A stretch of DNA of 32,000 nucleotides from Deinococcus radiodurans R1 = ATCC 13939 = DSM 20539 (GCF_000008565.1 NC_000958.1:135432-167431); one strand, 5' to 3'; numbered from the stretch's first letter, positions 1,965-32,000 are shown. Program-made: numbers and translations. The notes: a model not told the origin generated them from the sequence alone.

Positions 1965-1973
1965 GAAACCGGT
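1965..1973. repeat. 9-bp direct repeat GAAACCGGT abutting the outer (left) end of IS-B copy 1; partner at 21512..21520
   Basis: Left junction is GAAACCGGT|CTCAGTAGGTGAC. Right junction of copy 2 is GTCACCTACTGAG|GAAACCGGT. The match is exact at both outer IS junctions. Confidence 0.85.
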
Positions 1974-2022
1974 CTCAGTAGGTGACAACTTCAGTTTGCC
2001 CTCGTCCCAGACGGCAAAAACC

Positions 2023-2060
2023 AACAGTCGGCCCCATCAAGCTTGATGGGGCCGACTGTT
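2023..2060 (-). terminator. 38-bp perfect palindrome inside the IS-B left end; candidate minus-strand intrinsic terminator
   Basis: AACAGTCGGCCCCATCAAG|CTTGATGGGGCCGACTGTT centred on AAGCTT. On the minus strand the hairpin is followed by GGTTTTTGCC. The plus strand has only a weak T tract. It is conserved exactly in copy 2 (20354..20391). Confidence 0.5.
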
Positions 2061-2195
2061 CGCGGTTTCCTGAGAGTGTGAAATCAACAGAGGGGAGCTG
2101 CCCAGCAGGCTACCGCACTCACCGGGCACTTCAAAACGCATGCCAGTCACCTCCGCATCGATACACTCCAGCGCCTAATTGACGTCCTCCTGGCG

Positions 2196-3179
2196 ATGAT
2201 TGCCGCGAGGAGCGTCAATCATCACGACCTGAGTGCCCATATGCCGGGGATGAGTACCCCGCAGGGCAAGAAGAGACGAGCAGACCGCACCTTCCGGGAT
2301 GAGCAGCTGGACAGGGGCTTTTTCATCGCTCTGCTTGTCGTCCATCTTCCACCGGGGAAGGTTTTGCTAAGTCTGGACCGCACCAATTGGGAGCACGGGG
2401 AAACGCCCATCAACTTTCTGGTGCTTGGAGCCGTGGTTCACGGCTTCACCCTGCCGCTCATCTGGGTGCCTCTCGACCAGTCTGGGAACAGTCACACCTA
2501 CGCTCGAATGTGGCTGGTGTTGAAGCTCCTTCGGGCCTTGCCAGCGAAACGCTGGCTGGGCCTGGTGGCCGATCGGGAGTTCATCGGCGCGGAATGGTTC
2601 CGCTTTCTTCGTCGTCAGGGCATCAAGAGGGCAATTCGTATCCGACAGACCGACATGCTAGACGACATGAAGGGGAAAGAGTGGTTTGAGCACGTCCAGC
2701 ACGGTCATTTTCACGAGATTGGCGAAAAGGTGTTCGTGTTCGGGGAGTTGATGCGGGTGGTCGCAACGAGGTCACCCACAGGTGACCTCGTCATCATCGC
2801 CACAGATTTCAGTGCTCGGAAGACCTGGAGGCTCTACAAACAGCGCTGGTCGATTGAGTGCACCTTCAGCAGTTTCAAAAAGCGAGGCTTTGACTTAGAG
2901 CGAACCGGAATGACGGAAAGGAGCCGTCTACAGCGACTCTTCGGCCTGGTGACATTGGCTTGGATGTTCTGTTTGCGCCTGGGGGTCTGGCTGAGCCAGA
3001 CCTGGCCCATCCCCGTTCTGAAGCATGGTCGGAGAGCGGTCAGTCTGGTGCGGCACGGTGCTCAGCATCTCGTGGATGCCCTACGGTGGAAACCCCAACA
3101 GTTCATGGCGGTCCTAGAGGTGTTAATACAGCCTTTTTCCCCGCCAGGAGCGGCTGGAAGCGAAGTTGTCACCTACTGA
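2196..3179 (+). CDS. IS4-family DDE transposase (327 aa from first ATG)
   Basis: Contains LSLDRTNWEHG, LVADREFIG and YKQRWSIECTFSSFK (Y-x2-R-x3-E-x6-K). The frame stays open upstream to the stop at 2079-2081 with protein-like sequence (..LRIDTLQRLIDVLLAM..) but no ATG/GTG/TTG, so the true N-terminus is uncertain. Confidence 0.9.
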   Translation: MIAARSVNHHDLSAHMPGMSTPQGKKRRADRTFRDEQLDRGFFIALLVVHLPPGKVLLSLDRTNWEHGETPINFLVLGAVVHGFTLPLIWVPLDQSGNSHTYARMWLVLKLLRALPAKRWLGLVADREFIGAEWFRFLRRQGIKRAIRIRQTDMLDDMKGKEWFEHVQHGHFHEIGEKVFVFGELMRVVATRSPTGDLVIIATDFSARKTWRLYKQRWSIECTFSSFKKRGFDLERTGMTERSRLQRLFGLVTLAWMFCLRLGVWLSQTWPIPVLKHGRRAVSLVRHGAQHLVDALRWKPQQFMAVLEVLIQPFSPPGAAGSEVVTY

Positions 3180-3194
3180 GCCTGAGAATACCTT

Positions 3195-16923: not shown

Positions 16924-17369
16924 GAGAACTCCAATAGGGTATGGGCAAACGTGACTCACGAAAGTCGCGCTCTGGACGTATCCGCTGAGTTCAGGGTGAG
17001 GCGGAAGCGCAGGCAGGGAAGCGTGCGTTGAAACCATCGTCCGGGAGAAGTTGTGCACGAATCATGTCGGTTGCATGAAGGACCTTCATTTGACTGTCGC
17101 GCCTCTTTCTATAGTTGGTGCGTGATTGGGCGGGTCTGATTAGATCATTTGACAAAAAGAGTGCACCGCTTTTTGACGAGCGGAGCGAGTGCAAACCAAC
17201 GAGCAGGACGGACTTGCAAAGCTGCGAAGCAGAGAATGGAGCGGGTGGCGGCGCTGTTCCGACGCACGCGTAATTCGGAGAACTGCTCTAAGCCAGGCCC
17301 CGAATCGCAAAGGAAGAGCCCGCAGTAACGGGTGTATTGGAGGAGGAATTTTAAGGCAGCAGGTACGAA

Positions 17370-18691
17370 CAATGGTTCGTGCAGTTTTAGGCGGCTTTAA
17401 GTCCGAAATCCAGCGGACTGAACGGCGAATTCGCTCATTCTTCAAAGCGAGCCGAGAGGTCCAGATTGGATAAAATGACCTGGGCCAGCAGGGCGTTATA
17501 CGCCCTGCGTTTCATGTCTTCGAGACTGAACACCAGATCCTGCCCGCCACCTGCCGCTCGCAGGGCCTCCAGTCGGCAAAGATTCAGGGTCAGCAGCACC
17601 ACGTTCCAATGCGCCTCGATGCCCTGCTGTGACCGCAGTTGCACATCCTGGCCCCCCAGGAACTGTTTGGCATCCCGGAAGATCAGTTCGATCTCAAAGC
17701 GGCTTCGATACAGCGCCATGACCTCATGAGCCGGCATGGTCACAGCGGTGCTGAACAGCACCGCGTAGCCGGTGACCTGACCCTTTTTACCAATCTGCTG
17801 AATGACGACTGCGCGCACTTCCCGCGCCCACTGCACGCTCCAGACCACCTGCGTCCACACCCGCTCAGTCGGCCTTGCAGAGACGAGGTCGAAGCGCTGC
17901 AGGTCACTGAAGTCCACCTTACCGTCGAACTTCTTCTTTCGCCCCCGTCGTCTGGGATGCTCACCGGTGTAGAGGTCGTTGAGGTTGGCGTTGCGAGGCA
18001 ATCTGGAGATAAACGGGAGACCGTGACCCGTCACGGTCTCCACGATGGGTTCCTTCGCGTAATTCCCGTCGGCAACGACAGCAGCCAGATCAAGCTGTTG
18101 AACAGTCCGGAGATCGAGCAGCACGTCATCCAGCTGATCGGCGGCCTGTTCCAGACGAGTTGGAGCCTCAGACCCGGTCAGGGTCTGACGGACATCGACC
18201 GTCAAGGCCTGCCGGTGCTGGACATCAATGAGGGCACAACAGGATTGCTCGATTCCGCGTTCGGTCCGCGCGGCACAGCCATTCCAGAACGAGCCGAGGT
18301 GTGCGGTGTGCTGACCGGCTTTGCGGTGAAAAGAGGCGTCGATGGCCAGAACGCACAGTGGGCTGATCAGCCCACTCTCGATTGCTGTACTGACAGTCGC
18401 CTGGTGTAACGCGCCCCACGGAATGGCCCCATCGTCACTTCGGTGCAGCCAACGACGAATCGTACTCTCCGAGCAGGCTGCATACCGGGAGAGATTCAGG
18501 GCGTTCAGCCGTCCAGGAACAGCGAGAAAAACGCTGAGCAGCACGGTCAGGAAATTCCGCTGCGTCTTGCGCAGCGGGACCGCGCTGAGAACGTACTGTA
18601 GGATGGCCATCAGACCCATTGGAAGCGGTGATTTCACAGCTCCATTTTCAATGGGTCTTTCCTTTTGGGCTCAAAACTGCACGAACCATTG
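17370..18691 (-). mobile_element. IS-A (IS4/IS701-like DDE family), complete copy, 1322 bp
   Basis: 19-bp terminal inverted repeats CAATGGTTCGTGCAGTTTT (17370-17388) and AAAACTGCACGAACCATTG (18673-18691). It is inverted relative to the partial copy at 1..775. Confidence 0.9.
17435..18637 (-). CDS. DDE transposase of IS-A (400 aa)
   Basis: Candidate catalytic residues lie in VLAIDASFH, VVADGNYAKE and YRSRFEIELIFRDAK. It fills the element between the terminal repeats. Confidence 0.9.
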   Translation of the reverse strand: MKSPLPMGLMAILQYVLSAVPLRKTQRNFLTVLLSVFLAVPGRLNALNLSRYAACSESTIRRWLHRSDDGAIPWGALHQATVSTAIESGLISPLCVLAIDASFHRKAGQHTAHLGSFWNGCAARTERGIEQSCCALIDVQHRQALTVDVRQTLTGSEAPTRLEQAADQLDDVLLDLRTVQQLDLAAVVADGNYAKEPIVETVTGHGLPFISRLPRNANLNDLYTGEHPRRRGRKKKFDGKVDFSDLQRFDLVSARPTERVWTQVVWSVQWAREVRAVVIQQIGKKGQVTGYAVLFSTAVTMPAHEVMALYRSRFEIELIFRDAKQFLGGQDVQLRSQQGIEAHWNVVLLTLNLCRLEALRAAGGGQDLVFSLEDMKRRAYNALLAQVILSNLDLSARFEE

Positions 18692-18711
18692 GTCAAAGCC
18701 CCTACTCCTTT

Positions 18712-20220
18712 TTAATCCAGACGACCCGATCTGAAGTCCGCCCAGTAACTCTCCAGCTCACGGTGCACCACCGGCAACAGCAGGTATAGGCCAATGATGT
18801 TGGGAATAGAGGCGATAAACAGCAGCGCGTCGGAGAGGTTCACCACTGCGCCCAGACTCATGCTCGCGCCGATCACGACAAAGCTCAGAAAGACCAGCTT
18901 GAAGAGGTTGGTGGCCAGTTCGCTCGGACCAAGCAGATACCGCACCGCGCGGGTGCCGTAGTAGGCGTAGCTGATCATGGTGCTGAACGCGAAGAGGGCC
19001 ACGGCAATGGCGAGCACCGAGCTGAGCAGCGGCGAAACGCTGCGGAAGGCCGCGTTCGTCATCGCCACGCCCGCCACATCGGTCTGGGCGTAGGCACCGG
19101 TCACGATCAGGGCGAGCGCCGTCATCGTGCAAATGACCACCGTATCAATAAATGGCTCGAGCAGCGCGACGAAGCCCTCAGTGACGGGCCGGTACGTTTT
19201 GACAGGGCTGTGGGCGATGGCGGCCGAGCCGATGCCGGCTTCGTTGCTGAACGTTGCGCGCCGCATGCCCTGAATCATCACGCCGATAAAGCCACCGGCG
19301 ATGCCCTGCGGCGCAAAAGCGCCTTGCCAGATGGCAGAGAAGGCGGCGGGCAAGGCAGAAAAGTTCAGGGACAGAATCAAAATGATGGACACGATATAAA
19401 TCGCAGCCATGGCGGGGACGAGTTTGCTGGTCACGTTGGCGATGGCGCGAATCCCACCCAGGATGACCGCGCCGACGAGCAGCGCCAGGCCGAGCCCAAT
19501 CAACCAGGCCGAGCCTGACAGAGGGCTGGCCGGGCCACCCGTGGCGTTGATGATCTGCTGCGCCGCCTGGTTGCTCTGAAACATGTTGCCCGCCCCCAGA
19601 GAAGCAAAGATCATGCACAGGGCGTAAAACGGCCCCAAGACCCGGCCCAGCCCCGCTTTCCCTATTTCGGCCAGCCCCCGGGTCAGATAAAACATCGGGC
19701 CACCGTCTACGCGCCCATCGGGGTTGATGCGGCGGTATTTGACTCCGAGGGTACATTCCACAAACTTGGTGCTCATGCTGAGCAGGCCGACCAGAATCAT
19801 CCAGAACGTCGCGCCGGGCCCACCGAGGCTCAGGGCGACCGCGACCCCGGCGATATTTCCCAGACCCACCGTCCCGGAAACGGCTGTGGTCAGCGCCTGA
19901 AAATGCGTGACCATGCCTGGCGCGTCGGCGTCGTTGCCGTAGCGGCCACGCACGAGGTCGATCCCGTGTTTGAAGCCCCAGATATTGACGAAGCGGAAGC
20001 TGAGCGTGCAGACGATGGCGGCGACCGCCAGCCACACCACGATCAGCGGCACCTGGGCCTCACCGACGGAAATGCTGGCGAAAATGAGGCCTGATAAAAA
20101 GTGGCTGACGGGCGTGACCACCGCGTTGATCCGCTCATCCACGCTCGGGCCCTGGGCTGAAGCCCAAGAGACGGCGCCCAGCAGGCCAGTGAACACGAGT
20201 GCTGCTGGGAGGCGCCCCAT
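18712..20220 (-). CDS. alanine/glycine:cation symporter (AGCS family)
   Basis: AGCS blocks (GGPGATFWMILVGLLSMSTKFVECTLGVKYR, RATFSNEAGIGSAAIAHS). The track ORF runs to 20355, but its first 17 codons lie inside IS-B copy 2. The ATG at 20220 (MGRLPAALVF..) is the first plausible native start, though the start remains uncertain. Confidence 0.8.
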   Translation of the reverse strand: MGRLPAALVFTGLLGAVSWASAQGPSVDERINAVVTPVSHFLSGLIFASISVGEAQVPLIVVWLAVAAIVCTLSFRFVNIWGFKHGIDLVRGRYGNDADAPGMVTHFQALTTAVSGTVGLGNIAGVAVALSLGGPGATFWMILVGLLSMSTKFVECTLGVKYRRINPDGRVDGGPMFYLTRGLAEIGKAGLGRVLGPFYALCMIFASLGAGNMFQSNQAAQQIINATGGPASPLSGSAWLIGLGLALLVGAVILGGIRAIANVTSKLVPAMAAIYIVSIILILSLNFSALPAAFSAIWQGAFAPQGIAGGFIGVMIQGMRRATFSNEAGIGSAAIAHSPVKTYRPVTEGFVALLEPFIDTVVICTMTALALIVTGAYAQTDVAGVAMTNAAFRSVSPLLSSVLAIAVALFAFSTMISYAYYGTRAVRYLLGPSELATNLFKLVFLSFVVIGASMSLGAVVNLSDALLFIASIPNIIGLYLLLPVVHRELESYWADFRSGRLD

Positions 20221-20353
20221 CCATGGCTCTTGAGCAGAACTGCTGCCGCTCTCCGAACTCAACGGCCTGCTCCTTGCAGACGCCGTTCGACTCCAGTCGG
20301 CGCTCTCAGTAGGTGACAACTTCGGTTCGACGTTGTCCCAGACGGCAAAAACC

Positions 20354-20391
20354 AACAGTCGGCCCCATCAAGCTTGATGGGGCCGACTGTT
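20354..20391 (-). terminator. 38-bp perfect palindrome (copy 2 of the IS-B internal hairpin)
   Basis: Identical to 2023..2060 and followed on the minus strand by GGTTTTTGCC. Confidence 0.5.
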
Positions 20392-20526
20392 CGCGGTGTC
20401 CTGAGAGTGTGAAATCAACAGAGGGGAGCTGCCCAGCAGGCTACCGCACTCACCGGGCACTTCAAAACGCATGCCAGTCACCTCCGCATCGATACACTCC
20501 AGCGCCTCATTGACGTCCTCCTGGCG

Positions 20527-21510
20527 ATGATTGACGCGAGGAGCGTCAATCATCACGACCTGAGTGCCCATATGCCGGGGATGAGTACCCCGCAGGGCAA
20601 GAAGAGACGAGCAGACCGCACCTTCCGGGATGAGCAGCTGGACAGGGGCTTTTTCATCGCTCTGCTTGTCGTCCATCTTCCACCGGGGAAGGTTTTGCTA
20701 AGTCTGGACCGCACCAATTGGGAGCACGGGGAAACGCCCATCAACTTTCTGGTGCTTGGAGCCGTGGTTCACGGCTTCACCCTGCCGCTCATCTGGGTGC
20801 CTCTCGACCAGTCTGGGAACAGTCACACCTACGCTCGAATGTGGCTGGTGTTGAAGCTCCTTCGGGCCTGGCCAGCGAAACGCTGGCTGGGTCTGGTGGC
20901 CGATCGGGAGTTCATCGGCGCGGAATGGTTCCGCTTTCTTCGTCGTCAGGGCATCAAGAGGGCAATTCGTATCCGACAGACCGACATGCTAGACGACATG
21001 AATGGGAAAGAGTGGTTTGAGCATGTCCAGCACGGTCATTTTCACGAGATCGGCGAAAAGGTGTTCGTGTTCGGGGAGTTGATGCGGGTGGTCGCAACGA
21101 GGTCACCTGTGGGTGACCTCGTCATCATCGCCACAGATTTCAGTGCTCGGAAGACCTGGAGGCTCTACAAACAGCGCTGGTCGATTGAGTGCACCTTCAG
21201 CAGTTTCAAAAAGCGAGGCTTTGACTTAGAGCGAACCGGAATGACGGAAAGGAGCCGTCTACAGCGACTCTTCGGACTGGTGACATTGGCTTGGATGTTC
21301 TGTTTGCGCCTGGGGGTCTGGCTGAGCCAGACCTGGCCCATCCCTGTTCTAAAGCATGGTCGGAGAGCGGTCAGTCTGGTACGGCACGGCGCTCAGCATC
21401 TCGTGGATGCCCTACGGTGGAAACCCCAACAGTTCATGGCGATCCTGGAGGTGTTCATCCAGGCTTTTTGCCTGCCAGGAGCGGCTGAAAGTGAAGTTGT
21501 CACCTACTGA
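20527..21510 (+). CDS. IS4-family DDE transposase (327 aa from first ATG)
   Basis: Same motifs as 2196..3179. The frame is open upstream to the stop at 20410-20412. Confidence 0.9.
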   Translation: MIDARSVNHHDLSAHMPGMSTPQGKKRRADRTFRDEQLDRGFFIALLVVHLPPGKVLLSLDRTNWEHGETPINFLVLGAVVHGFTLPLIWVPLDQSGNSHTYARMWLVLKLLRAWPAKRWLGLVADREFIGAEWFRFLRRQGIKRAIRIRQTDMLDDMNGKEWFEHVQHGHFHEIGEKVFVFGELMRVVATRSPVGDLVIIATDFSARKTWRLYKQRWSIECTFSSFKKRGFDLERTGMTERSRLQRLFGLVTLAWMFCLRLGVWLSQTWPIPVLKHGRRAVSLVRHGAQHLVDALRWKPQQFMAILEVFIQAFCLPGAAESEVVTY

Positions 21511-21511
21511 G

Positions 21512-21520
21512 GAAACCGGT
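21512..21520. repeat. 9-bp direct repeat GAAACCGGT abutting the outer (right) end of IS-B copy 2; partner at 1965..1973
   Basis: See 1965..1973. Confidence 0.85.
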
Positions 21521-21741
21521 ACATTTCCACGACACGGCTTGTCAAATGGCTCACTTCGCATTTGGTCGCCGCTTCCTTCAGGGCCAACAGCGGTGCCTTC
21601 TATGACTGAAGTGTCCAATATCCGTTTTTTTCACACTACGGGGCCAAACAACGGAAGTTACAGCTTGTCATGGCTTAATGAACTTGCAATAACTAAAGCG
21701 ATGCACAGCCGACCTTCTTTCCTCTCTTCCCACCGCGCACT

Positions 21742-24700
21742 GTGAATATTTTCGAGTTCCGTCAGGAAGTCATCAACCAGTACGCCTCCTACGTCTCTTC
21801 CTTCGTTTATATCCGCGACCGGGACGTGCGCGCCTATGTGGACGCACAGATGCGGAGTGGGGTCTTCTGGCCTGATCCTCTTGCGCAACTCAACCCCAAC
21901 TTCACGCCGGGCGGCAGCGTCAGTGACCTTGTCAGTCAAGGGGTCCTGCACCCGGACTGCGCCGCGCTGTTTGCGGCTGGTGAGCCGCGCTCTCCCCTCA
22001 ACTTGCACGCCCACCAGCGCGACGCGGCTCGGCTGGCCCGTGAGGGGCGCTCGTATGTCGTGACCACCGGTACCGGTTCGGGCAAATCACTGACCTACAT
22101 CCTCCCTATCGTGGACCACGTGCTGCGCCGCGGCAGCGGCAAGGGCATCCAGGCCATCGTGGTCTACCCGATGAACGCGCTTGCCAACAGTCAGGTGGAA
22201 GAACTCAGCAAGTTCCTGGGCGACAACGGACCCGTGACTTTTCGGCGCTACACCGGCCAGGAAAAACGCGAAGAAAAAGACGCCATCATCGCCAATCCGC
22301 CGGACATCCTGCTGACCAACTACATGATGCTGGAACTGATTCTCACCCGGCAGGACGAAGCCGCGCTGGTCCGGGCTGCTGAGGGCGTGCGCTTCGTGGT
22401 TTTTGACGAGCTTCATACCTACCGTGGGCGGCAGGGGGCAGACGTAGCGCTGCTGATTCGCCGCCTGCGCGAGAGACTAAGGGCCCCCGACGCCATTTGC
22501 GTCGGTACCAGCGCCACGATGTCGTCCAGTCCGGTGTATGCCGAGCGGCAAAGGGCTGTCGCGGACGTGGCCTCGCGGCTCTTTGGGTTGGACATGACCC
22601 CCGAGCAGGTCATCGGGGAAATGTTGGAGCGCGTGACCTCAGGCGAGCCGGGCACCGCCGAGCTGAAAGCTGCCGTGGCCGCGCCAGTGCCGTCCACCTT
22701 TGAAACCTTTATTCGCGACGCCTTGGTGGTGTGGCTTGAAAACATGGTGGGCCTCCGGTGGGACGGCGAGGCGAAGCGCTATGACCGACAACCACCACAG
22801 GCCGTGGCGGGGGACGGGGGGCTGGCGGCGCAGCTCGCCCTGGAAACGGGCCTCCCCGTGATGCAGTGCCTGGAAGCCCTGCAAGGCCGCCTCCTCGCCG
22901 GCAACGCTCTGCAGCACCCGGCCACGGGGCGACCGGTGTTCGCGTTTCGGCTTCACCAGTTCATCAGCAAGGCGGCCACCGTCTACGCCCCGCTGCTGCC
23001 CTGCGCCGAGCGCCTGGAACACCTCACGTTGCGCGGACAGGTGTACGCCCCGGAGAGTGGGCGCACCCTGCGGCTTTACCCACTGGAGTTTTGCCGCAAC
23101 TGCGGGCAGGAATACTACTCAGTGCGCCGCGTCCCTGACCCTGACACGGGCCGTGAGGTGTTCGTGGCACGCGGCAATGAGGCCCGCCAAGAAAGCACGC
23201 CGGACGACGGCTATCTCTACCTCGGGGACCCCCCCTGGCCCCTGGACGAGGAGAAGCTGCTTGAGCGCCTGCCCGACAACTGGCTGGAGGAGAAGAACGG
23301 CCAACTGCGCGTGAAGTCCAGCCGCCGTGGGCAGCTCCCACGTACCGTGCGGGTGAGTGGTCTGGGTGAAGTGGGCCAAGCGGAAAGAGTCCGCGCCGCA
23401 TTCATAGAAGGCGAATTCCGCTTCTGCTTGTGCTGCGGCGTGAGTTATCTGGGCCGCACCGGCAAGCTGACCAAGCTTGCCACCCTGTCGAGCGAGGGGC
23501 GCTCCACGGCCACGACGCTGCTCAGCATGGCGGCGGTGCAGGGGCTGAGAAAGTCCGACCTGCGGGACACCGCCCGCAAGATTCTGTCGTTTACGGACAA
23601 CCGTCAAGACGCCTCTTTGCAGGCCGGGCACTTCAACGATTTCGTGTTCGTGGCCTCGCTGCGCGCCGCGTTGGCGCGGGCGCTTAAGGCAAGCCCACTC
23701 ACGCTCGAAGACGTAGCCCAGAAGGTGTTTGCAGCGTTAGAGCTGGACCTCGCTGCGTTCGCCAGCGACCCCAACGTGCGCTTCGGCGAGCGCGACCGCA
23801 CCCTCAAGACGGCCCACAACCTGATTGGCTACGCGCTCTATGCCGACCTTGCTGAAGGCCGCCGCCTGACCCTGCCCAACCTCGAAGGCGTGGACCTTGT
23901 GCGCTTCGAGTACCCCTACCTGCGAGAGGTTTGCGAAGCCCAAGACCTCTGGGAGCGGGCCCATCCGGCCCTGTCGGTGGTGCGCAGCGGCGTGGTCGAG
24001 GCGCGTGAGCGTGCCGCGCGGGCGCTGCTTGACTGGCTGCGGCAAAACCTCGCCATCAAGGCGCCTTACCTCGATCCCGACTATCTGGGCGCTGTGGTGC
24101 TGAACCTGGGCCTGATCCGCGAGGACAGCCCCCTGTCCCTACCGCCCGAAGAGGCGCAGAACCTCACCACAGCGCGGCGAGTGGTACTGGGCACGCTGCC
24201 ACGCGACGAGGGACGCTCCACCGGGCGACTCTCTTTGAGCGCCCAGGGGGCTGTTGGCCGCTACCTGACGCGCCCGGAAACGCTCGCCTGGAGCCAGGCC
24301 CTGAAGCGCGACGATGTGGACGCCATCTTGCATGACCTCTTGCTGGCCCTCTCTGAGTTCATCGAGCAGGTGGAGCCGGGCGCCTACCAACTCAAGGGAA
24401 CCAGTTTCACTTGGCACGCCGGGCCGGGCACCGAGCCGTCCGTGGACGCCTTGCGGGTGCTGCGTCCCGCGGGCAGCGAAGCGCCGCGCGTCAACTCGTT
24501 TTTCCTCTCGCTCTACCAGCAGCCCGCCGCCGAGTTTCGTGACCTTCACGGCGCCGAACACACCGCGCAGATTCGCGCTGAGGAACGCGAGAAGCGTGAA
24601 GAAGCCTTCCGCGCCGGCACCCTCCCCGCGCTGTTTTGCTCGCCCACCATGGAACTGGGCGTGGATATCAGCGACCTGAATGTGGTGCACCTGCGCAACG

Positions 24701-26862
24701 TGCCGCCCACCCCGGCCAACTACGCGCAGCGCTCCGGGCGTGCTGGGCGCAGCGGGCAGCCCGCACTGGTGATGACCTACGCCACCACCGGTAACAACCA
24801 TGACCAGTATTTCTTCCGGCGCCCGGGGCTCATGGTGGGCGGCAGCGTCTCTACCCCGCGGCTAGAACTGGGCAACGAGGCGCTGGTCAGGTCGCATGTG
24901 CACGCCATCTGGCTGGCCGAGACCGGCCAGAAGTTGCCGCCTTCGGTGGCCGAGCTGCTTGACGTGAATGGTGAAGACCCCACTCTGGCGCTGCTGCCGG
25001 ACTTCCAGCATCCGTTTCAGGATGAGGGCGTACAAAAGCGCACTCTGATTCGGGCACGGCAGCTCATCGCTGGTCTGGGCGTGGACCTCACAGGGACCGG
25101 GTGGTACAGCGAGGAATGGCTCACTTACACCGTCAAACACGCCGCCCGTGAGTTTGACCGGGCCTGCGACCGCTGGCGTGACCTTTACCGCAGCGCCCTC
25201 TCGCAGCTTCACCTCAACAACGCCGTGCTGGCCGACGCGGGCAAACGCCACCTTCAGGAACAGGCGCGCCGCCTGCACGCTGAGGCGAACACGCAGCTCA
25301 GCTTGCTGCGCAGTCCTGAAGGCGAGCTGTCGGACTTTTACACCTACCGCTACTTGGCTTCTGAGGGCTTCTTACCGGGATACAACTTCGCGCGTCTGCC
25401 CCTCTCGGCTTACATACCCGGACGGCGCGGCGCGAAGGCAGGAAGGGACAGCTACCTCTCGCGGCCCCGCTTTCTGGCGCTCTCTGAGTTCGGGCCAAAC
25501 GCCATCGTCTATCACAACGGCGCGAAGTACGAGGCCCACAAAGTCATCGTGCCGGCCCGCGGTGAAACCAGTGAACTGCCCACAGTGAGTGCCCAGCGCT
25601 GTGAGCAGTGCGGCTACCTTCACCATGGCAGCGGCGACGTTCAGGGCGATCAGGGTGCCCGCGACGTGTGCGAGAACTGTCAGGCCCAGCTCGCGCCCCC
25701 GCGCCCGGACCTCTTCCGCATGACCTCAGTGGCGACCCGCCGCCGCGAGCGCATCAGCAGTGACGAAGAAGAGCGGCGCCGGATCGGCTTTGACGTCAAG
25801 AGCGGCATGCGCTTCGCTTCGCGCGGGGGGCGGGCCGACCGCGTGCAGGCGCTGGCAGCCACCGACGCGCCGCTGCTGCGCCTGACTTACGGCGACGGCG
25901 CGACGCTCTGGCGCATCAACTATGGCTGGCGCAACCGCGAAAACAAGCAGGAACTCGGCTTTCTCTTTGACCCCGAGACCTCACAGTGGCTCAGCAAGCA
26001 GGGGCACGAACGGAAGCTCAAGGCCGCCGGAGGACGGGACGTGGCCGTGCAGCGAGTGATTCCCTATGTGGAAGACACCCGCAATGTGCTGCTGATTGAG
26101 CCGGCCCTTCCTCTGGATGCGGGCGGCATGGCTACGCTGATGAGCGCTCTCAAAAACGCTGCGCAGCTCACCTACCAGCTGGAGGACAGTGAGCTCGCGG
26201 CCGAGTTGCTGCCCGACAGCCAGGAGCCGCGCCAAATTCTGCTGTACGAAGCGTCCGAAGGCGGGGCCGGCGTACTGCAAGATTTGGTGTTCCGCTCGGG
26301 GGCGCTGGGTGAAGTGGCCGCCGCGGCGCTGGGCCTGCTGCACTTTGACCCCCTGACGGGCGAGGATCACGGGCACGCCCCCCACGCGGCGGAGCGCTGC
26401 GAAGCGGCCTGCTACGACTGTCTGATGACTTATGGCAACCAGACGTTTCATGACCTGCTTGACCGCTTCGCCGTGCGCGAACTGCTGCTGCGACTGCGTG
26501 AGGCGCGGGTCACCTTGCCCGGTGACGCAGGCGACCCTTTTGAGACCCTCTGCGCGGCGTGCGGCAGTGAACTGGAGCGCGAATGGTTGCGCTTTGTGCG
26601 GGATGAGGGCCGGCGTCTGCCGTCACACGCGCAACTGCTCGTGCCGGACCACTACGCCCGCCCGGACTTCGCGTACGCCGAGCAGGCGGCCCTGATCTTC
26701 ATCGACGGGCCCCACCACGACCAGCCTGGTCAGACAGGCCGCGACGCCCGACTGCGCGAAGAGTTGGAGTTTGCCGGGTATACCGTCGTGCCCTTTACGC
26801 ATGACCGCAGCACCTGGCCGGCGCAACTTGCCCGCTACGCATTCATTTTCGGGGAAGGATAA
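21742..26862 (+). CDS. 1706-aa DExH-box helicase fused to a DUF1998/MrfA-type Zn-binding domain and a C-terminal DUF559/Vsr-like nuclease-fold module (DrmA+DrmB-like fusion)
   Basis: GTG start. Walker A TGTGSGKS (aa 109-116), DELH (222-225), SAT (257-259). CxxC pairs at C451/C454 and C562/C564/C565. Helicase-C motif [12 protein letters not shown] (996-1005). DUF1998-type [15 protein letters not shown] (from aa 1202) with Cys clusters C1287/C1290/C1310/C1313 and [15 protein letters not shown] (1553-1560). C-terminal ~100 aa has RPDF (D1642) and IFIDGPHHD (D1655) followed by [20 protein letters not shown]. Confidence 0.85.
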
Positions 26863-26864
26863 CT

Positions 26865-29690
26865 ATGACGTTTGATATCGGTTCAATGGTGCGTGCCCGT
26901 GGGCGCGACTGGGTGGTGCTGCCTGAAAGCGGCGCGGACTTCCTGCTGCTGCGTCCCCTGGGCGGCAGCGACGCAGAAATCGCGGGCGTGTACGCCGGGG
27001 AGGGTGGGGAGGAGGTCACCTCGGCAGCGTTCGCCCCCCCGAGCCCCGCGGCCTTCGGGACCGCGAGTGGAGCGCGGCTGCTGCTGAACGCGGCCCGGCT
27101 GGCGGTGCGCAGCGGCGCTGGGCCCTTCCGGTCCCTGAGCCGCCTGGGCGTGGAGCCGCGCCCGTACCAGCTGGTGCCGCTCCTCATGGCCCTGCGCCAG
27201 AGCCCGGCCCGGCTGATGATCGCCGACGACGTGGGCATCGGGAAGACGGTGGAAGCCGCCTTAATCGCCCGCGAGCTGCTGGACCGGGGCGAGATCGACC
27301 GCCTGACGGTCCTGTGCCCACCGCACCTGGCGGGACAGTGGGTGGAGGAATTGCGGGTCAAGTTCGGCATCGACGCGGTGGCCGTGCTGCCCGGCACCGC
27401 CCGGCGCCTGGAAAAGGGCTGTAACCCTGGCCAGAGCGTCTTTGAGCGCTACAAATTCACGGTGGTCAGTCTCGACCTCGTGAAGTCGGACCGGTGGCGG
27501 CAGGACTTTCTGACCAATGCGCCCGATTTCGTCATCGTGGACGAGGCGCACGCCAGTGCTGAGGGCGAGGGCATGGGCACCAAGCGCCACCAACGCTACC
27601 GGCTGCTCGAAGACCTCGCCAGGAAGGAAGACCGGCACCTGATTCTGGTCACCGCCACGCCCCACAGCGGCAAGGAAGACGCCTTCCGCAGCCTGCTGCG
27701 GCTGCTCAATCCCGACTTCGCCAGGCTGCCACTCGACCTCAGCGGGGCGCAAAACGAGCGTGCCCGCGCGACCCTGGCCCGGCACCTCGTGCAGCGCGGG
27801 CGTAAGGACATCGCAGAGTACCTGCAGGAAGACACTCCTTTTCCAACCCGGCGCGACGCCGAGCTGCACTACGCCTTGCACCCGGACTACGCCGCCCTCT
27901 TTGACGACGTGCTGGCCTACGCCCGCGAGAGTGTCCACGTGCCCGGCGAGGCCCAGAGCCGCACCCGCATTCGCTGGTGGGCGGCGCTGGGGCTGCTGCG
28001 GGCGCTGGCGAGTAGTCCGCAGGCCGCCGCCGCCACCCTGCGCGAGCGGGCCATAGCGGCGGACGACGGAGAGACCGACGAAGCGGTGATCGACCGGCTG
28101 GGCCGCGAGCTGGTGCTTGACCCCGAAGAGGGCGAGGACAGTGCCCTGGACATGACTCCTGGGGCTCAGGTGGACGGTGAGCAGAGTGAAACCACCGGGC
28201 GGCTGCTGACGCTGGCGAGCCGGGCCGACGCCCTGGCCGGGGCCAAGGACAACAAACTGAAGCTGCTGACGGCGCAGGTGCAGGGGCTCGTCGATCAGGG
28301 ATTTGCGCCCATTGTGTTTTGCCGCTTTATTGCCACCGCAGAGGCCGTGGCCGAGCACCTCCGGGGGGCCCTGAAAGGCAGCGAAGTGCTGGCGGTCACC
28401 GGACGTCACACGCCCGACGAGCGGGTGGACCGGGTGGAAGAGCTCGCCCGCGCTGAGCGGCGGGTGCTGGTGGCGACCGACTGCCTCTCTGAGGGCATCA
28501 ACCTGCAGGCGGCTTTCAGCGCTGTGATCCACTACGACCTGCCCTGGAACCCCACCCGACTCGACCAGCGCGAAGGCCGGGTCGACCGCTACGGGCAGGC
28601 CAGCCCCGAGGTGCGGGTGCTGACCATCTACGGCGAGGACAACCGCATTGACACCCTGATTCTGGAGGTGCTGGTGCGCAAGCACCGCTTGATTCGCGCC
28701 ACGCTCGGCACCAGTGTGCCGGCGCCGGAAGAGGCCGAGAGCCTGCTCGACGTGCTGCTCAGCCGGGTGCTGAACGCGCAGGGGCGCGAAGTGATTCAGC
28801 CGCTGCTCTTTGAGGACGTGCAGGCCTTTGACCTCAAGTGGCGCGACGCCGCCGAAGGGGAAAAGAAATCGCGCAGCCGCTTTGCCCAGAACAGCATCCG
28901 CCCCGAAGAAGTGGCGAGCGAGTTGCGGGCAGTCCGTGAAGCGCTAGGGGACGCGCACGCGGCGCAAGACTTTGTGCTCGACGCTCTGAGTGGAGCCGGC
29001 GTGAGTGTTTCACCGCGTGTGGACGGCAGCTTCGAGGCCGACCCCGCGCAGGCGGACGTGAGGCCCGAGTACCGCGATTTCCTGCGTGGGGCGCGGCGTT
29101 TTCGCTTCGACGCCCAGACTGAGCGCGGCGTGACCCCGCTTGCCCGCAACCACCCCCTCGTGGAGCAGCTCGCCAGTACGGTGCTGGGGCAGGCGCTCGA
29201 CGCTCCGCTGGAGGCGGCGGCCAAACGGGTGGGCGTGATTCGCACCTCCAAGGTTGCCACGCAGACCACGCTGCTGCTGCTGCGTCACCGCTTTCACCTC
29301 ACGGGGCGCAAGGGCAACCGGACGTGGCAGACGCTGGCTGAGGAACTCGACCTGCTCGCCTACGCGGGGCGGGCACCGGCGGACGGGAAAGGCGGCTGGC
29401 TGGACGCCGAAGCCACCCGCGCCCTGCTCGCCCTGACGCCCGAAGGCAACCTCGACCCGGTGCAAAAAGAAGACCGCTTGACCCGCGTTCTGGCCGACGT
29501 TCAGGGCCTGGACGGGCCCCTGATGGCCCGCGCTCAGGAGCGCGCCGCCGCGCTGCTGGAGGCGCACGAGCGGGTGCGTGGGGCCGCGCGCGGGCAGGGC
29601 GTGACCTACAGCGTGGAACCGCCCGGCCCCCCAGACCTGCTCGGCATTTACGTCTTCCTGCCCCTGCCCAAACTTGGAGCCCTGTCTTGA
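26865..29690 (+). CDS. SNF2-family helicase (941 aa; DrmD-like)
   Basis: SD GGGGAAGGA lies 5 nt upstream of the ATG, which is 2 nt after the upstream stop. DDVGIGKT (K127), VIVDEAHAS (DEAH 226-229), [46 protein letters not shown]. Confidence 0.9.
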
Positions 29691-32000
29691 CCACCCAACT
29701 ACATCATGTCCGCCTGCACGGCCTGGGCCTGACCGACGATTTTCTGCTGCAACTTTCCGACCGCGCCCAGACGGGCAAGGTCGAGGGGGCCACTCCCGCC
29801 AGCTACGACCTGCCCCCCAAGACCAGTCTGGAAGAAGCCATTCAGGACGCCTGGGACGACGCCCGCAAAGCGTGGGCGAAATACCAGCAGCACGGCACCG
29901 ACGCCTGGGCTGGATGGGTGCGGCCTCTGCTGCGCGCGCTGGACTACAACTTCGTGGGGGGCGGCGCGGCGGGCGGCAAATACGCCGTGGGCCACCTCAC
30001 GGAAACCGGGGACGTGCCGCTGCATTTCACCCGGCAGCCGGACCTTGACCGCGTGACCGACGAAACCGGGCTGCGCGTCAGTCCGCACGGCCTGATGCAG
30101 GGCTACCTGAACGCGACGCCGGAGCATCTGTGGGGCCTCGTGACCAACGGCGAGACGCTGCGGCTGCTGCGCGACAACGCCCAGGTGACGCGCCCGGCCT
30201 ACGCCGAGTTCCAGATTGGCGAGATGCTGCGCACCGAGGACGCCCGCGCCTTCCGGGTGCTGTGGCTGCTGCTCCACCGCACCCGGCTGCGCGGCGGCAA
30301 GGTGGGGCCGCTGGAAGCCTGGAACGAGGCGAGCAAGGTGCTCGGCCAGCGCGCCAACGACACCCTGCGCGACGGGGTACAGCTCGCCATCGAGCACCTC
30401 GGGACCGGCTTTTTGCGGCACAACCCGGAGCTGCTGGAGCGCACGCGCAGCGGCGAAGTCAAGGCCGAGGACCTCTACCGCGCGGCCCTGACCACCGTGT
30501 ATCAGATGGTGTTCCTGTTCGTCACCGAGGACCGCGACCTGCTGTTTGCGCGGGATGAAGACGGCGAATACCTTCCCGACGCGCAGACCCGCGCCCGCGC
30601 CGCGCACTACCTGACCCGCGCCCTGCGGCAGAAAGCCGGCAGCGTAAACGGCAACCCGCTGCACCACGACGCTTACGTGGCCTGGGAGCGGCTGCTGGGC
30701 TACCTGCGCGGCGGCTTTGCCCCGCTGGGCCTGCCGGCGCTGGGCAGCCTGCTGTTTCAGCCGACCCTGCTCAGTGGCCTGAAACTCGGCAACGACGCTT
30801 TTTACGGCGCCGTGCGCGCCCTGAGCGAAATCAGCGTGAACGGCAGCCTGCGTCCGGTGAACTACGCGGGCCTGGACTCCGAGGAGCTGGGCAGCATCTA
30901 CGAGAGCCTGCTGGAACTGGTGCCCCGCATCGAGCCGGGGCCCCGCTTCTCGCTGACCGTGCTGCCCGGCAATGAGCGCAAAAGCACCGGCAGTTACTAC
31001 ACGCCGGGCAGCCTGATTGACCTGCTGCTGGACAGCGCCCTTGACCCGGTGATCGAAGACGCCGTACGTGACAAGCTCCCGGAAGACGCCATCGCCGCGC
31101 TTAAAGGTCTCAAGGTGATCGACCCGGCGTGCGGCTCGGGGCACTTCCTGATTGCCGCCGCCCGCCGCATTGGAGCGCGGCTGGCCGAACTGGAAGAGGA
31201 AACCAGCCTCCCCAGCCCCCGCGCCCTGCGAAAAGCCACCCGCACCGTCATCGCCCACTGCATCTACGGGGCGGACATCAACCCCATGGCGATTGAGCTG
31301 GCCAAAGTCGCCCTGTGGCTCGAAAGCCAGGACGCGGGCCGGCCCCTGGCCTTCCTCGACCACCGCCTGCGCGTGGGCAACAGCCTGCTGGGCGCCACGC
31401 CCGAGCTGATGAACGCCGAGGACGAGATTCCCGAAAAGACCGTGCGCGGCGTGACCAGCCGGGCCGTCAGGGCCCATACCCTTCACCTGCCCGACGAAGC
31501 GTTCAGCGCCATTTAAGGTGACGACAAGAAAACCGTCTCGGAGCTGAAAAAGCGCAACAAGGCCGAGCGTGAGGCCCTGATTCGCGCTGCCAAAGGCGAA
31601 CAGAGCCTGTTCGACGTGTCCGGCGACCTCGCGCCCCTCACGGCAATGGTGCGGGCGCTGGACAAAATCGAACCCGACAGCGCCGAGCACGTGCAGGCGC
31701 AGCAGAGTACCTACCACGCCATTCGCCAGAACGCCCGCTTGCAGGAGCAGCAGCGCCTGGCCGACGCCTGGTGCGCCGCCTTCGTCGCCCCCAAGACCCC
31801 CGGCCAACCCGCGCTAACCACCGCCACGCTGCACGCCCTGAAACGCACGCCGGACGCCCCCGCCCTGCAACCCGTGCGGCAACTGGTGAGCGACGTGGCC
31901 GCGCAGTACGCCTTCCTGCATCCGCACATCGAGTTTCCCGACGTGTTCGGAGACGCGCAAAAAGGTGGCTTCGACTGCGTGCTGGGCAACCCACCGTGGG
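29687..32000 (+). pseudogene. large Eco57I-type (gamma-class) N6-adenine DNA methyltransferase interrupted by an in-frame TAA at 31514-31516; 3' end outside window (DrmMI-like)
   Basis: TTG start in a TTGA overlap with the SNF2 stop. Motif I VIDPACGSGHFL (~31115-31150), [28 protein letters not shown]. After ..PDEAFSAI-TAA the same frame stays open to the window end ([19 protein letters not shown]...) and reaches motif [13 protein letters not shown] (NPPW at 31988-31999). Confidence 0.75.

Follow-up and report, generated by a model that had tools for sequence, protein, structure and literature searches.

What kind of system is encoded by three very large, translationally coupled genes that lie next to an insertion sequence (IS) on a megaplasmid of Deinococcus radiodurans? 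The genes begin at position 21742 of a 32,000-nucleotide stretch (here called the window; GCF_000008565.1 NC_000958.1:135432-167431, positions counted from its first letter), which matches megaplasmid MP1 (pMP1) of D. radiodurans R1 at 100% identity. An earlier reading of the sequence alone, which we call the original prediction, had described a DISARM class 1-like defence locus of a distinct architectural subtype, with DrmA and DrmB fused. Our analysis indicates that the locus is very probably an ARMADA Type I anti-phage operon on MP1 whose methyltransferase has been lost in R1. The system is already known and this specific gene is already catalogued; what is new, besides some side observations, is that R1 carries two inactivating lesions in the methyltransferase gene.

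The locus comprises the three plus-strand open reading frames (ORFs) originally described, which correspond to DR_B0135 to DR_B0138. By exact sequence, the products of gene 1, gene 2 and the 5' fragment of gene 3 are AAF12564.1, AAF12565.1 and AAF12566.1, respectively. Bell et al. 2025 give AAF12564.1 as DR_B0135 in their Table S1, so that DR_B0136 and DR_B0137 are the tags expected for the other two. The main features are as follows.

21742-26862, plus strand: gene 1 (DR_B0135), helicase-nuclease of 1706 amino acids with a GTG start (ORF, Pfam, identity to AAF12564.1)
26851-26859, plus strand: Shine-Dalgarno-like sequence GGGGAAGGA for gene 2 (read directly from the sequence)
26865-29690, plus strand: gene 2 (DR_B0136), SNF2 helicase (RapA/BrxHII/DrmD-like) of 941 amino acids (Pfam, PADLOC, NCBIfam, identity to AAF12565.1)
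29687-31516, plus strand: 5' fragment of gene 3 (DR_B0137), methyltransferase codons 1-609 with a TTG start (ORF, Pfam, PADLOC)
31514-31516, plus strand: nonsense TAA in the methyltransferase frame, at a codon for Glu in intact orthologues
31517-32000, plus strand: continuation of the methyltransferase frame, cut by the window end; DR_B0138 is annotated from the GTG at 31616

The predicted coupling of these genes holds in detail. The end of gene 1 carries GGGGAAGGA, then its TAA, two bases and the ATG of gene 2, and genes 2 and 3 overlap by the TTGA at 29687-29690, with GGAG 7 nucleotides upstream. Orthologues in D. radiophilus keep the same 2-nucleotide gap and 4-nucleotide overlap. What had been overlooked is the in-frame TAA at 31514-31516: gene 3 had been taken to run uninterrupted to the end of the window.

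ARMADA (short for "disARM-related Antiviral Defense Array") was described by Bell et al. 2025 (bioRxiv 10.1101/2025.09.15.676423). In that description, a Type I operon begins with a YprA/DruE-like helicase that has a fused DUF1998 and, at its C-terminus, a Vsr-type nuclease predicted to be active; a BrxHII/DrmD-like SNF2 protein and a PglX/DrmMI-like methyltransferase follow in that order. Table S1 of the same study lists DR_B0135/AAF12564.1 as "ARMADA Type I helicase", along with a copy in CP038665.1, and a look-up confirmed that gene 1 is identical to this entry. In the published YprA tree the repair proteins and the defence proteins form distinct branches; ARMADA belongs to the defence branch, with Druantia and outside the DISARM/Dpd clade (Bell et al. 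2025). Type I helicases are also characterized by a BrxA-like helical insert after RecA1, a beta-barrel zinc module and a MarR-like insert in RecA2.

The R1 locus shares the three-gene layout of Type I. Gene 1 carries a fused OB-CON-DUF1998 module and a C-terminal predicted Vsr nuclease, a BrxHII/RapA-like SNF2 gene adjoins the YprA helicase gene, and the third position is taken by a member of the PglX-like N6-adenine methyltransferase family, a pseudogene in R1, giving the order YprA helicase, SNF2, methyltransferase. Pfam agrees with the domain inventory that had been proposed (DExH helicase, DUF1998, SNF2 and adenine methyltransferase), and the Pfam search suggested alongside it recovers both DUF1998 and SNF2. 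The unusual architecture is thus real and not new, being that of ARMADA Type I; an exact match to another, already defined system is the outcome that the original prediction had itself named as speaking against it.

We examined each gene in turn. Gene 1 matches the Pfam families DEAD (E = 1.6e-28), Helicase_C (6.6e-14) and MZB (the family also called DUF1998, PF09369; 5.7e-9), the last scoring 37 bits against a cutoff of 24.2 over residues 1467-1561. Its helicase motifs GTGSGKS, DELH and QRSGRAGR are all intact, and neither its four CxxC pairs nor its CEAACYDC cluster varies across 14 diverse homologues.

22069-22089, plus strand: gene 1 motif I, GTGSGKS
22405-22416, plus strand: gene 1 DELH
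23092-23106, 23425-23439, 25600-25614 and 25669-25683, plus strand: gene 1 CxxC pairs, with invariant Cys
24727-24750, plus strand: further helicase motif of gene 1
26140-26424, plus strand: MZB/DUF1998 zinc-binding domain of gene 1 (PF09369), including CEAACYDC at 26398-26421
26539-26859, plus strand: C-terminal Vsr-type PD-(D/E)xK nuclease of gene 1, about residues 1600-1706 (predicted; PF04480 borderline, homologues, Foldseek)
26659-26676, 26698-26721 and 26737-26754, plus strand: Vsr domain motifs RPDF, FIDGPHHD and RDA

The nuclease-fold tail that had been proposed for gene 1 is borderline in Pfam: its last ~100 residues match PF04480 (DUF559) at E = 8.6e-4, and the 19.6 bits fall just short of the cutoff (20.6). 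Among full-length homologues at 48-50% identity, many have PF04480, and JGI names such proteins "YprA/very-short-patch-repair endonuclease"; residues D1642, D1655 and D1668 are invariant among homologues. We modelled residues 1380-1706 with AlphaFold2 (pLDDT 88.2) and compared the model with known structures in Foldseek. The C-terminus matches MrfA (6znp, E = 1.5e-4) and the catalytic domain of the Vsr-like enzyme I-Bth0305I (3r3p_B, probability 0.99, TMt 0.66). Together these data support a predicted Vsr-type PD-(D/E)xK nuclease.

In PADLOC, DruE models rank first for gene 1 (1.2e-88), far ahead of DrmA (6e-20), and cover only parts of the protein. Its C-terminal 620 residues match DruE models only, with no DrmB match at E <= 0.01, so the proposed DrmA-DrmB fusion does not stand at the sequence level, and the DruE-like helicase that had been offered as the alternative is the better description. 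The closest solved relatives are DruE (9TU7, 3e-67 with the family profile), followed by MrfA/YprA; no DISARM DrmA or DrmB chain occurs among the best 60 Protein Data Bank (PDB) matches.

Gene 2 contains the Pfam domains SNF2-rel_dom and Helicase_C with intact motifs.

27225-27248, plus strand: gene 2 DDVGIGKT
27540-27551, plus strand: gene 2 DEAH
28566-28598, plus strand: further helicase motif of gene 2

PADLOC assigns it to DrmD (5.6e-79) and BrxHI/II (3.9e-62), and matches it end to end with the model PDLC02853, labelled DpdE (1.4e-231, 769 bits). Against the NCBIfam equivalog models the picture differs: DISARM_DrmD matches over its full length at 312 bits, short of its cutoff of 610, and DpdE reaches 204 bits, short of 500. 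The NCBIfam RapA model matches at 4e-37. Judged by these profile scores, gene 2 is a DrmD homologue but not a DrmD equivalog. PDLC02853 probably represents ARMADA-type SNF2 helicases, and the DpdE label that PADLOC v2 puts on the SNF2 component would mislead automated annotation of ARMADA loci.

Gene 3 matches the Pfam families N6_Mtase, MmeI_Mtase and Eco57I, and an intact orthologue scores 60.5 bits against Eco57I. In PADLOC, DrmMI ranks first with partial coverage (2e-65; 6e-74 for the intact orthologue), and type IIG and PglX models also match.

31121-31147, plus strand: S-adenosylmethionine (SAM)-binding motif of gene 3, DPACGSGHF
31988-31999, plus strand: gene 3 motif IV, NPPW
about 33157-34225 in window-equivalent coordinates: ISDra3, with inverted repeats of 27 nucleotides and TA duplicated at the target site

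The methyltransferase gene of R1 is a pseudogene, broken twice. Past the TAA at 31514-31516 the frame stays open through NPPW, so that SAM-binding motif I is separated from catalytic motif IV. The same codon is GAA (Glu) in the intact orthologue of Deinococcus sp. PESE-13 (SAIEGDDKK against SAI*GDDKK in R1), a protein of 1330 amino acids with at least 90% identity, and is also Glu in D. radiophilus. All R1-type assemblies checked and strain BRD125 share the TAA. A tblastn search with the PESE-13 orthologue located the second lesion, a copy of ISDra3 (IS630 family) inserted after codon 1168, ~1.2 kb past the window end; the 161-residue "hypothetical protein" annotated beyond ISDra3 is the methyltransferase tail (161 codons). 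Removing ISDra3 and one TA in silico restores a methyltransferase frame of 1320 codons in which the TAA is the sole defect, which indicates that the decay is recent. Programmed readthrough of the TAA was considered; it would leave the ISDra3 insertion unrepaired. Single-molecule real-time (SMRT) sequencing of R1 detected no N6-methyladenine (6mA) motif (Li et al. 2019, PMC6712171).

Alignment of the R1 gene (window 29687-32000 and 17946-22969 of our pMP1 locus, L007) with PESE-13 gave 97-100% identity over residues 1-700, 47-82% over residues 700-1200 and 90-100% over residues 1200-1320. Such a mosaic pattern suggests that a target-recognition region has been exchanged, which would mean a different specificity. 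The methyltransferase on D. radiophilus plasmid pRadio2 (L008:19921-24737) is itself cut at about codon 1207-1210 by an IS982-family element, with the last 120 codons lying after it. Two independent IS insertions thus fall within ~40 codons in two species, a coincidence that with n = 2 could be chance.

To check the neighbourhood independently, we used a gene 1 homologue profile to collect 80 loci from GTDB species genomes and added the D. radiophilus plasmid, for 81 in all. These loci span Deinococcota, Chloroflexota, Planctomycetota, Actinomycetota, Pseudomonadota, Acidobacteriota, Cyanobacteria and other groups. Helicase, SNF2 and methyltransferase genes follow one another on one strand in 50 of the 81. 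Three complete and three contig-truncated loci have SNF2 and methyltransferase upstream of the helicase, the reversed order also noted by Bell et al. 2025, and one has the trio plus a second methyltransferase-like stretch upstream. Most other loci stop at a contig edge; three have room for a partner and lack one. We clustered the 828 flanking ORFs, looking for phospholipase D (PLD), DrmB or ArmD-like genes, and found no recurrent fourth gene, no PLD and no family in more than 10 loci; the largest cluster, in 10 loci, consists of XRE-type regulators, most of them encoded on the other strand in Streptomyces. The neighbourhood tabulation that the original prediction had proposed therefore bears out the linkage to a methyltransferase and yields no further partner. 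Its statement that no PLD gene is visible extends to 10 kb on either side of the R1 locus.

As a separate observation, a ~690-residue ORF with RelE-like and UvrD-like parts occurs in 6 of the 81 loci, lying between trio genes in four of them (including L065:7597-9669), and resembles ArmD of ARMADA Type II.

How might such an operon work? By analogy with DISARM class 1, BREX, DruE of Druantia III and the tested ARMADA Type II, the methyltransferase of an intact system would mark a host DNA motif at adenine, and the SNF2 motor and the YprA/DruE-like helicase would engage unmodified invading DNA. The Vsr nuclease would then cut the engaged DNA, so that the phage is cleared and the cell survives. 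DruE loads on exposed single-stranded DNA and acts as a 3'-to-5' DNA helicase. ARMADA Type II gives direct, non-abortive protection against phages and requires all its genes, including the methyltransferase and its NPPW motif: deleting the methyltransferase or mutating NPPW abolishes defence, and the methyltransferase deletion is viable. As the Type II methyltransferase is essential for defence and yet deletable, the R1 locus most likely provides no defence and does its host no harm. The R1 copy is thus, by this analogy, most likely a recently inactivated, non-toxic remnant.

Several points weigh against reading the locus as a Type I system with a lost methyltransferase. The clade assignment rests on the published Table S1, and the BrxA-like insert described for this lineage was not confirmed in gene 1 by Foldseek. 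Published experimental testing was found for ARMADA Type II only and not for Type I, and the ARMADA paper does not address methylation (Bell et al. 2025); methylation as a self mark, the substrate and the role of the Vsr domain are all inferred by analogy. Finally, Li et al. 2019 (PMC6712171) state that 6mA, as determined by mass spectrometry, was affected when the three methyltransferase genes other than M.DraR1 were deleted, ORF15360P among them. By locus-tag position ORF15360P is the methyltransferase gene described here, and the split enzyme may therefore keep some residual activity.

The alternatives, taken in falling order of probability, begin with one that concerns the remaining genes. 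The helicase-nuclease and SNF2 genes are intact in both R1 and D. radiophilus despite the independent IS hits on the 3' end of the methyltransferase gene. Loss or truncation of the methyltransferase may be under selection in these naturally transformable bacteria, and the remaining two-gene module, or a split methyltransferase reassembled from its fragments, might still serve DNA processing or defence independently of methylation; we consider this unlikely.

A non-canonical class 1 DISARM, with DrmA and DrmB fused and DrmC missing or encoded elsewhere, is improbable. Kinship with DISARM is genuine: DrmMI gives the best PADLOC matches to gene 3, gene 2 matches DrmD in both PADLOC and NCBIfam, gene 1 contains DUF1998, and ARMADA is explicitly called DISARM-related by Bell et al. 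2025. Of the original prediction, this relationship, the distinct layout and the DruE-like helicase hold. The defining parts are otherwise: gene 1 lies nearer to DruE than to DrmA in PADLOC and among PDB chains (where DruE and MrfA do appear), its DUF1998 half gives no DrmB match and no separate DrmB is present, gene 2 misses the DrmD cutoff, and DrmC has no counterpart, PLD genes being absent within 10 kb in R1 and not recurring in the 81 loci. The nuclease is a fused Vsr domain, and the published YprA tree groups ARMADA with Druantia and not with the DISARM/Dpd clade.

Could these instead be housekeeping DNA-repair helicases of a radiation-resistant host, unrelated to defence? The historic annotations ("RNA helicase, putative" and "HepA") would fit this, the founding member of the YprA/MrfA family works in mitomycin repair, and DR_B0136 is among the DNA-processing genes whose expression changes in a methylase mutant. 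We nevertheless regard it as very improbable, as ARMADA falls in the defence branch of the published tree, its sister Type II protects against phages, and the genes show strict operonic linkage across phyla to a large methyltransferase of the restriction-modification (RM) type. The locus is moreover plasmid-borne, lies beside HicAB and McrBC genes, and is both flanked and interrupted by IS elements.

The chances are slimmer still for a Druantia variant in which a DruE-like protein has acquired new partners. DruE is the best match to gene 1 both in PADLOC and among PDB sequences. DruE models match gene 1 only in parts, and its nuclease is a predicted active Vsr domain and not the PLD pair of Druantia III. 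DruA-D, DruM/F/G and DruH are absent from the locus, which adjoins IS elements, transporter genes, HicAB and McrBC; no DruH-like or DruA-D-like gene is conserved in the 81 neighbourhoods, and the SNF2 and methyltransferase partners kept across phyla are those that define ARMADA.

Least probable of all is a Dpd-type (7-deazaguanine) restriction module, for which speak the end-to-end PDLC02853 match of gene 2 and weak PADLOC matches of gene 1 to DpdJ and DpdF, and against which stand the NCBIfam scores (DpdE as above; DpdJ 77 bits against 800), the probable inclusion of ARMADA-type SNF2 proteins in PDLC02853, the four-Cys DUF1998 cluster of gene 1 that canonical Dpd helicases have lost, and the absence of DpdA/TGT-like, dpdA-C, que or 7-deazaguanine synthesis genes near the R1 locus and of any recurring in the 81 loci.

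The IS neighbours noted in the original prediction are there: ISDra1 flanks the locus upstream, which limits any native promoter region to 230 bp.

20301-21511, plus strand: copy of ISDra1 (IS4 family), 97.4% identical to the copy at 1970-3180
20527-21510: ISDra1 transposase coding sequence (annotation)
21512-21741, plus strand: upstream intergenic region (alignment and consensus scan)

In the alignment with D. radiophilus, an ATG stands opposite the GTG at which gene 1 starts. In alignments with D. radiophilus and D. marmoris we found no conserved promoter upstream of gene 1; similarity starts at the start codon, with the exception of CCGCGC just before it, shared with D. radiophilus only. 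The appearance of DR_B0136 in RNA sequencing data indicates that the operon is transcribed. No Rfam family was found in 20000-32000. The sole sigma-70-like match upstream of gene 1 is at 21497-21525 (TTGTCA, 17 nucleotides, TACATT), a match to the consensus pattern only. It extends across the right-hand end of ISDra1, and expression of the operon might therefore rely on a promoter that is IS-borne or hybrid. Two long antisense ORFs (29699-31807 and 27261-28685) and a 129-residue ORF at 21356-21745 lack Pfam matches and were treated as high-GC artefacts.

Downstream of the operon on pMP1 come ISDra3, HicA/HicB, McrB/McrC and RepA. The HicA/HicB genes and a large McrB (DUF8425/8426 plus AAA_5) with McrC occupy L007:22490-28627, ahead of RepA. 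With the ARMADA remnant before them, HicAB and McrBC form a small defence island beside plasmid replication genes. The D. radiophilus trio adjoins ParA/ParB/RepA, and HicA follows the trio.

Elsewhere in the window, the two direct ISDra1 copies bracket ~17 kb of transporter and metal-related genes, among them a siderophore ABC system, hemolysin-family genes, TerC and a Na:Ala symporter; the segment may be a composite transposon. Two inverted ISDra7 copies, 99.6% identical, lie at 1-784 (cut by the window start) and 17360-18144.

The supposed new DISARM subtype is therefore ARMADA Type I, and no new kind of system is added. With its methyltransferase dead, the R1 copy is a poor choice for the cloning and phage challenge that the original prediction had envisaged. 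The intact 1330-residue allele of Deinococcus sp. PESE-13 would be a better choice, and an intact Deinococcus trio would make a compact three-gene test case for ARMADA Type I.

Among the known systems compared with the locus, BREX has a PglX-like large gamma-class methyltransferase needed for defence and modification and an SNF2-like BrxHII; BrxA/B/C, PglZ and BrxL are absent from the R1 locus, and BREX is without a YprA-like helicase-nuclease. Druantia DruE (type III-A, 9TU7) is likewise a large YprA-family 3'-to-5' helicase with MZB/DUF1998 and zinc modules, whereas its partners are DruH (or DruA-D, or DruM/F/G) in place of an SNF2-methyltransferase pair, and type III DruE has PLD domains instead of an active Vsr domain. 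DISARM class 1 has a homologous SNF2 protein, an N6-adenine methyltransferase, a YprA-family helicase with a DUF1998 module and an RM-like logic. It differs in placing helicase and DUF1998 on separate proteins and in using a PLD nuclease (DrmC), where the R1 locus has a fused protein and a Vsr-type nuclease; further features of DrmA are its EVE-like N-terminus and its trigger loop, and the R1 helicase is phylogenetically closer to DruE. ARMADA Type II (armABCD, E. coli NCTC 12900 / EDL933) encodes a homologous SNF2 protein (ArmA), methyltransferase (ArmB) and YprA-like helicase-nuclease (ArmC), but in the order SNF2-methyltransferase-helicase, with a fourth gene, ArmD (RelE-UvrD/GajB-like), and with extra inactive EEP and Vsr domains in ArmC, none of which is found in the R1 locus. 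ARMADA Type I agrees with the R1 locus in its three genes and their order, in the fused OB-CON-DUF1998 module, in several CxxC zinc modules and in the Vsr-type tail; the R1 locus departs from it in a methyltransferase broken by a nonsense codon and ISDra3, and so is a degraded member of that type.

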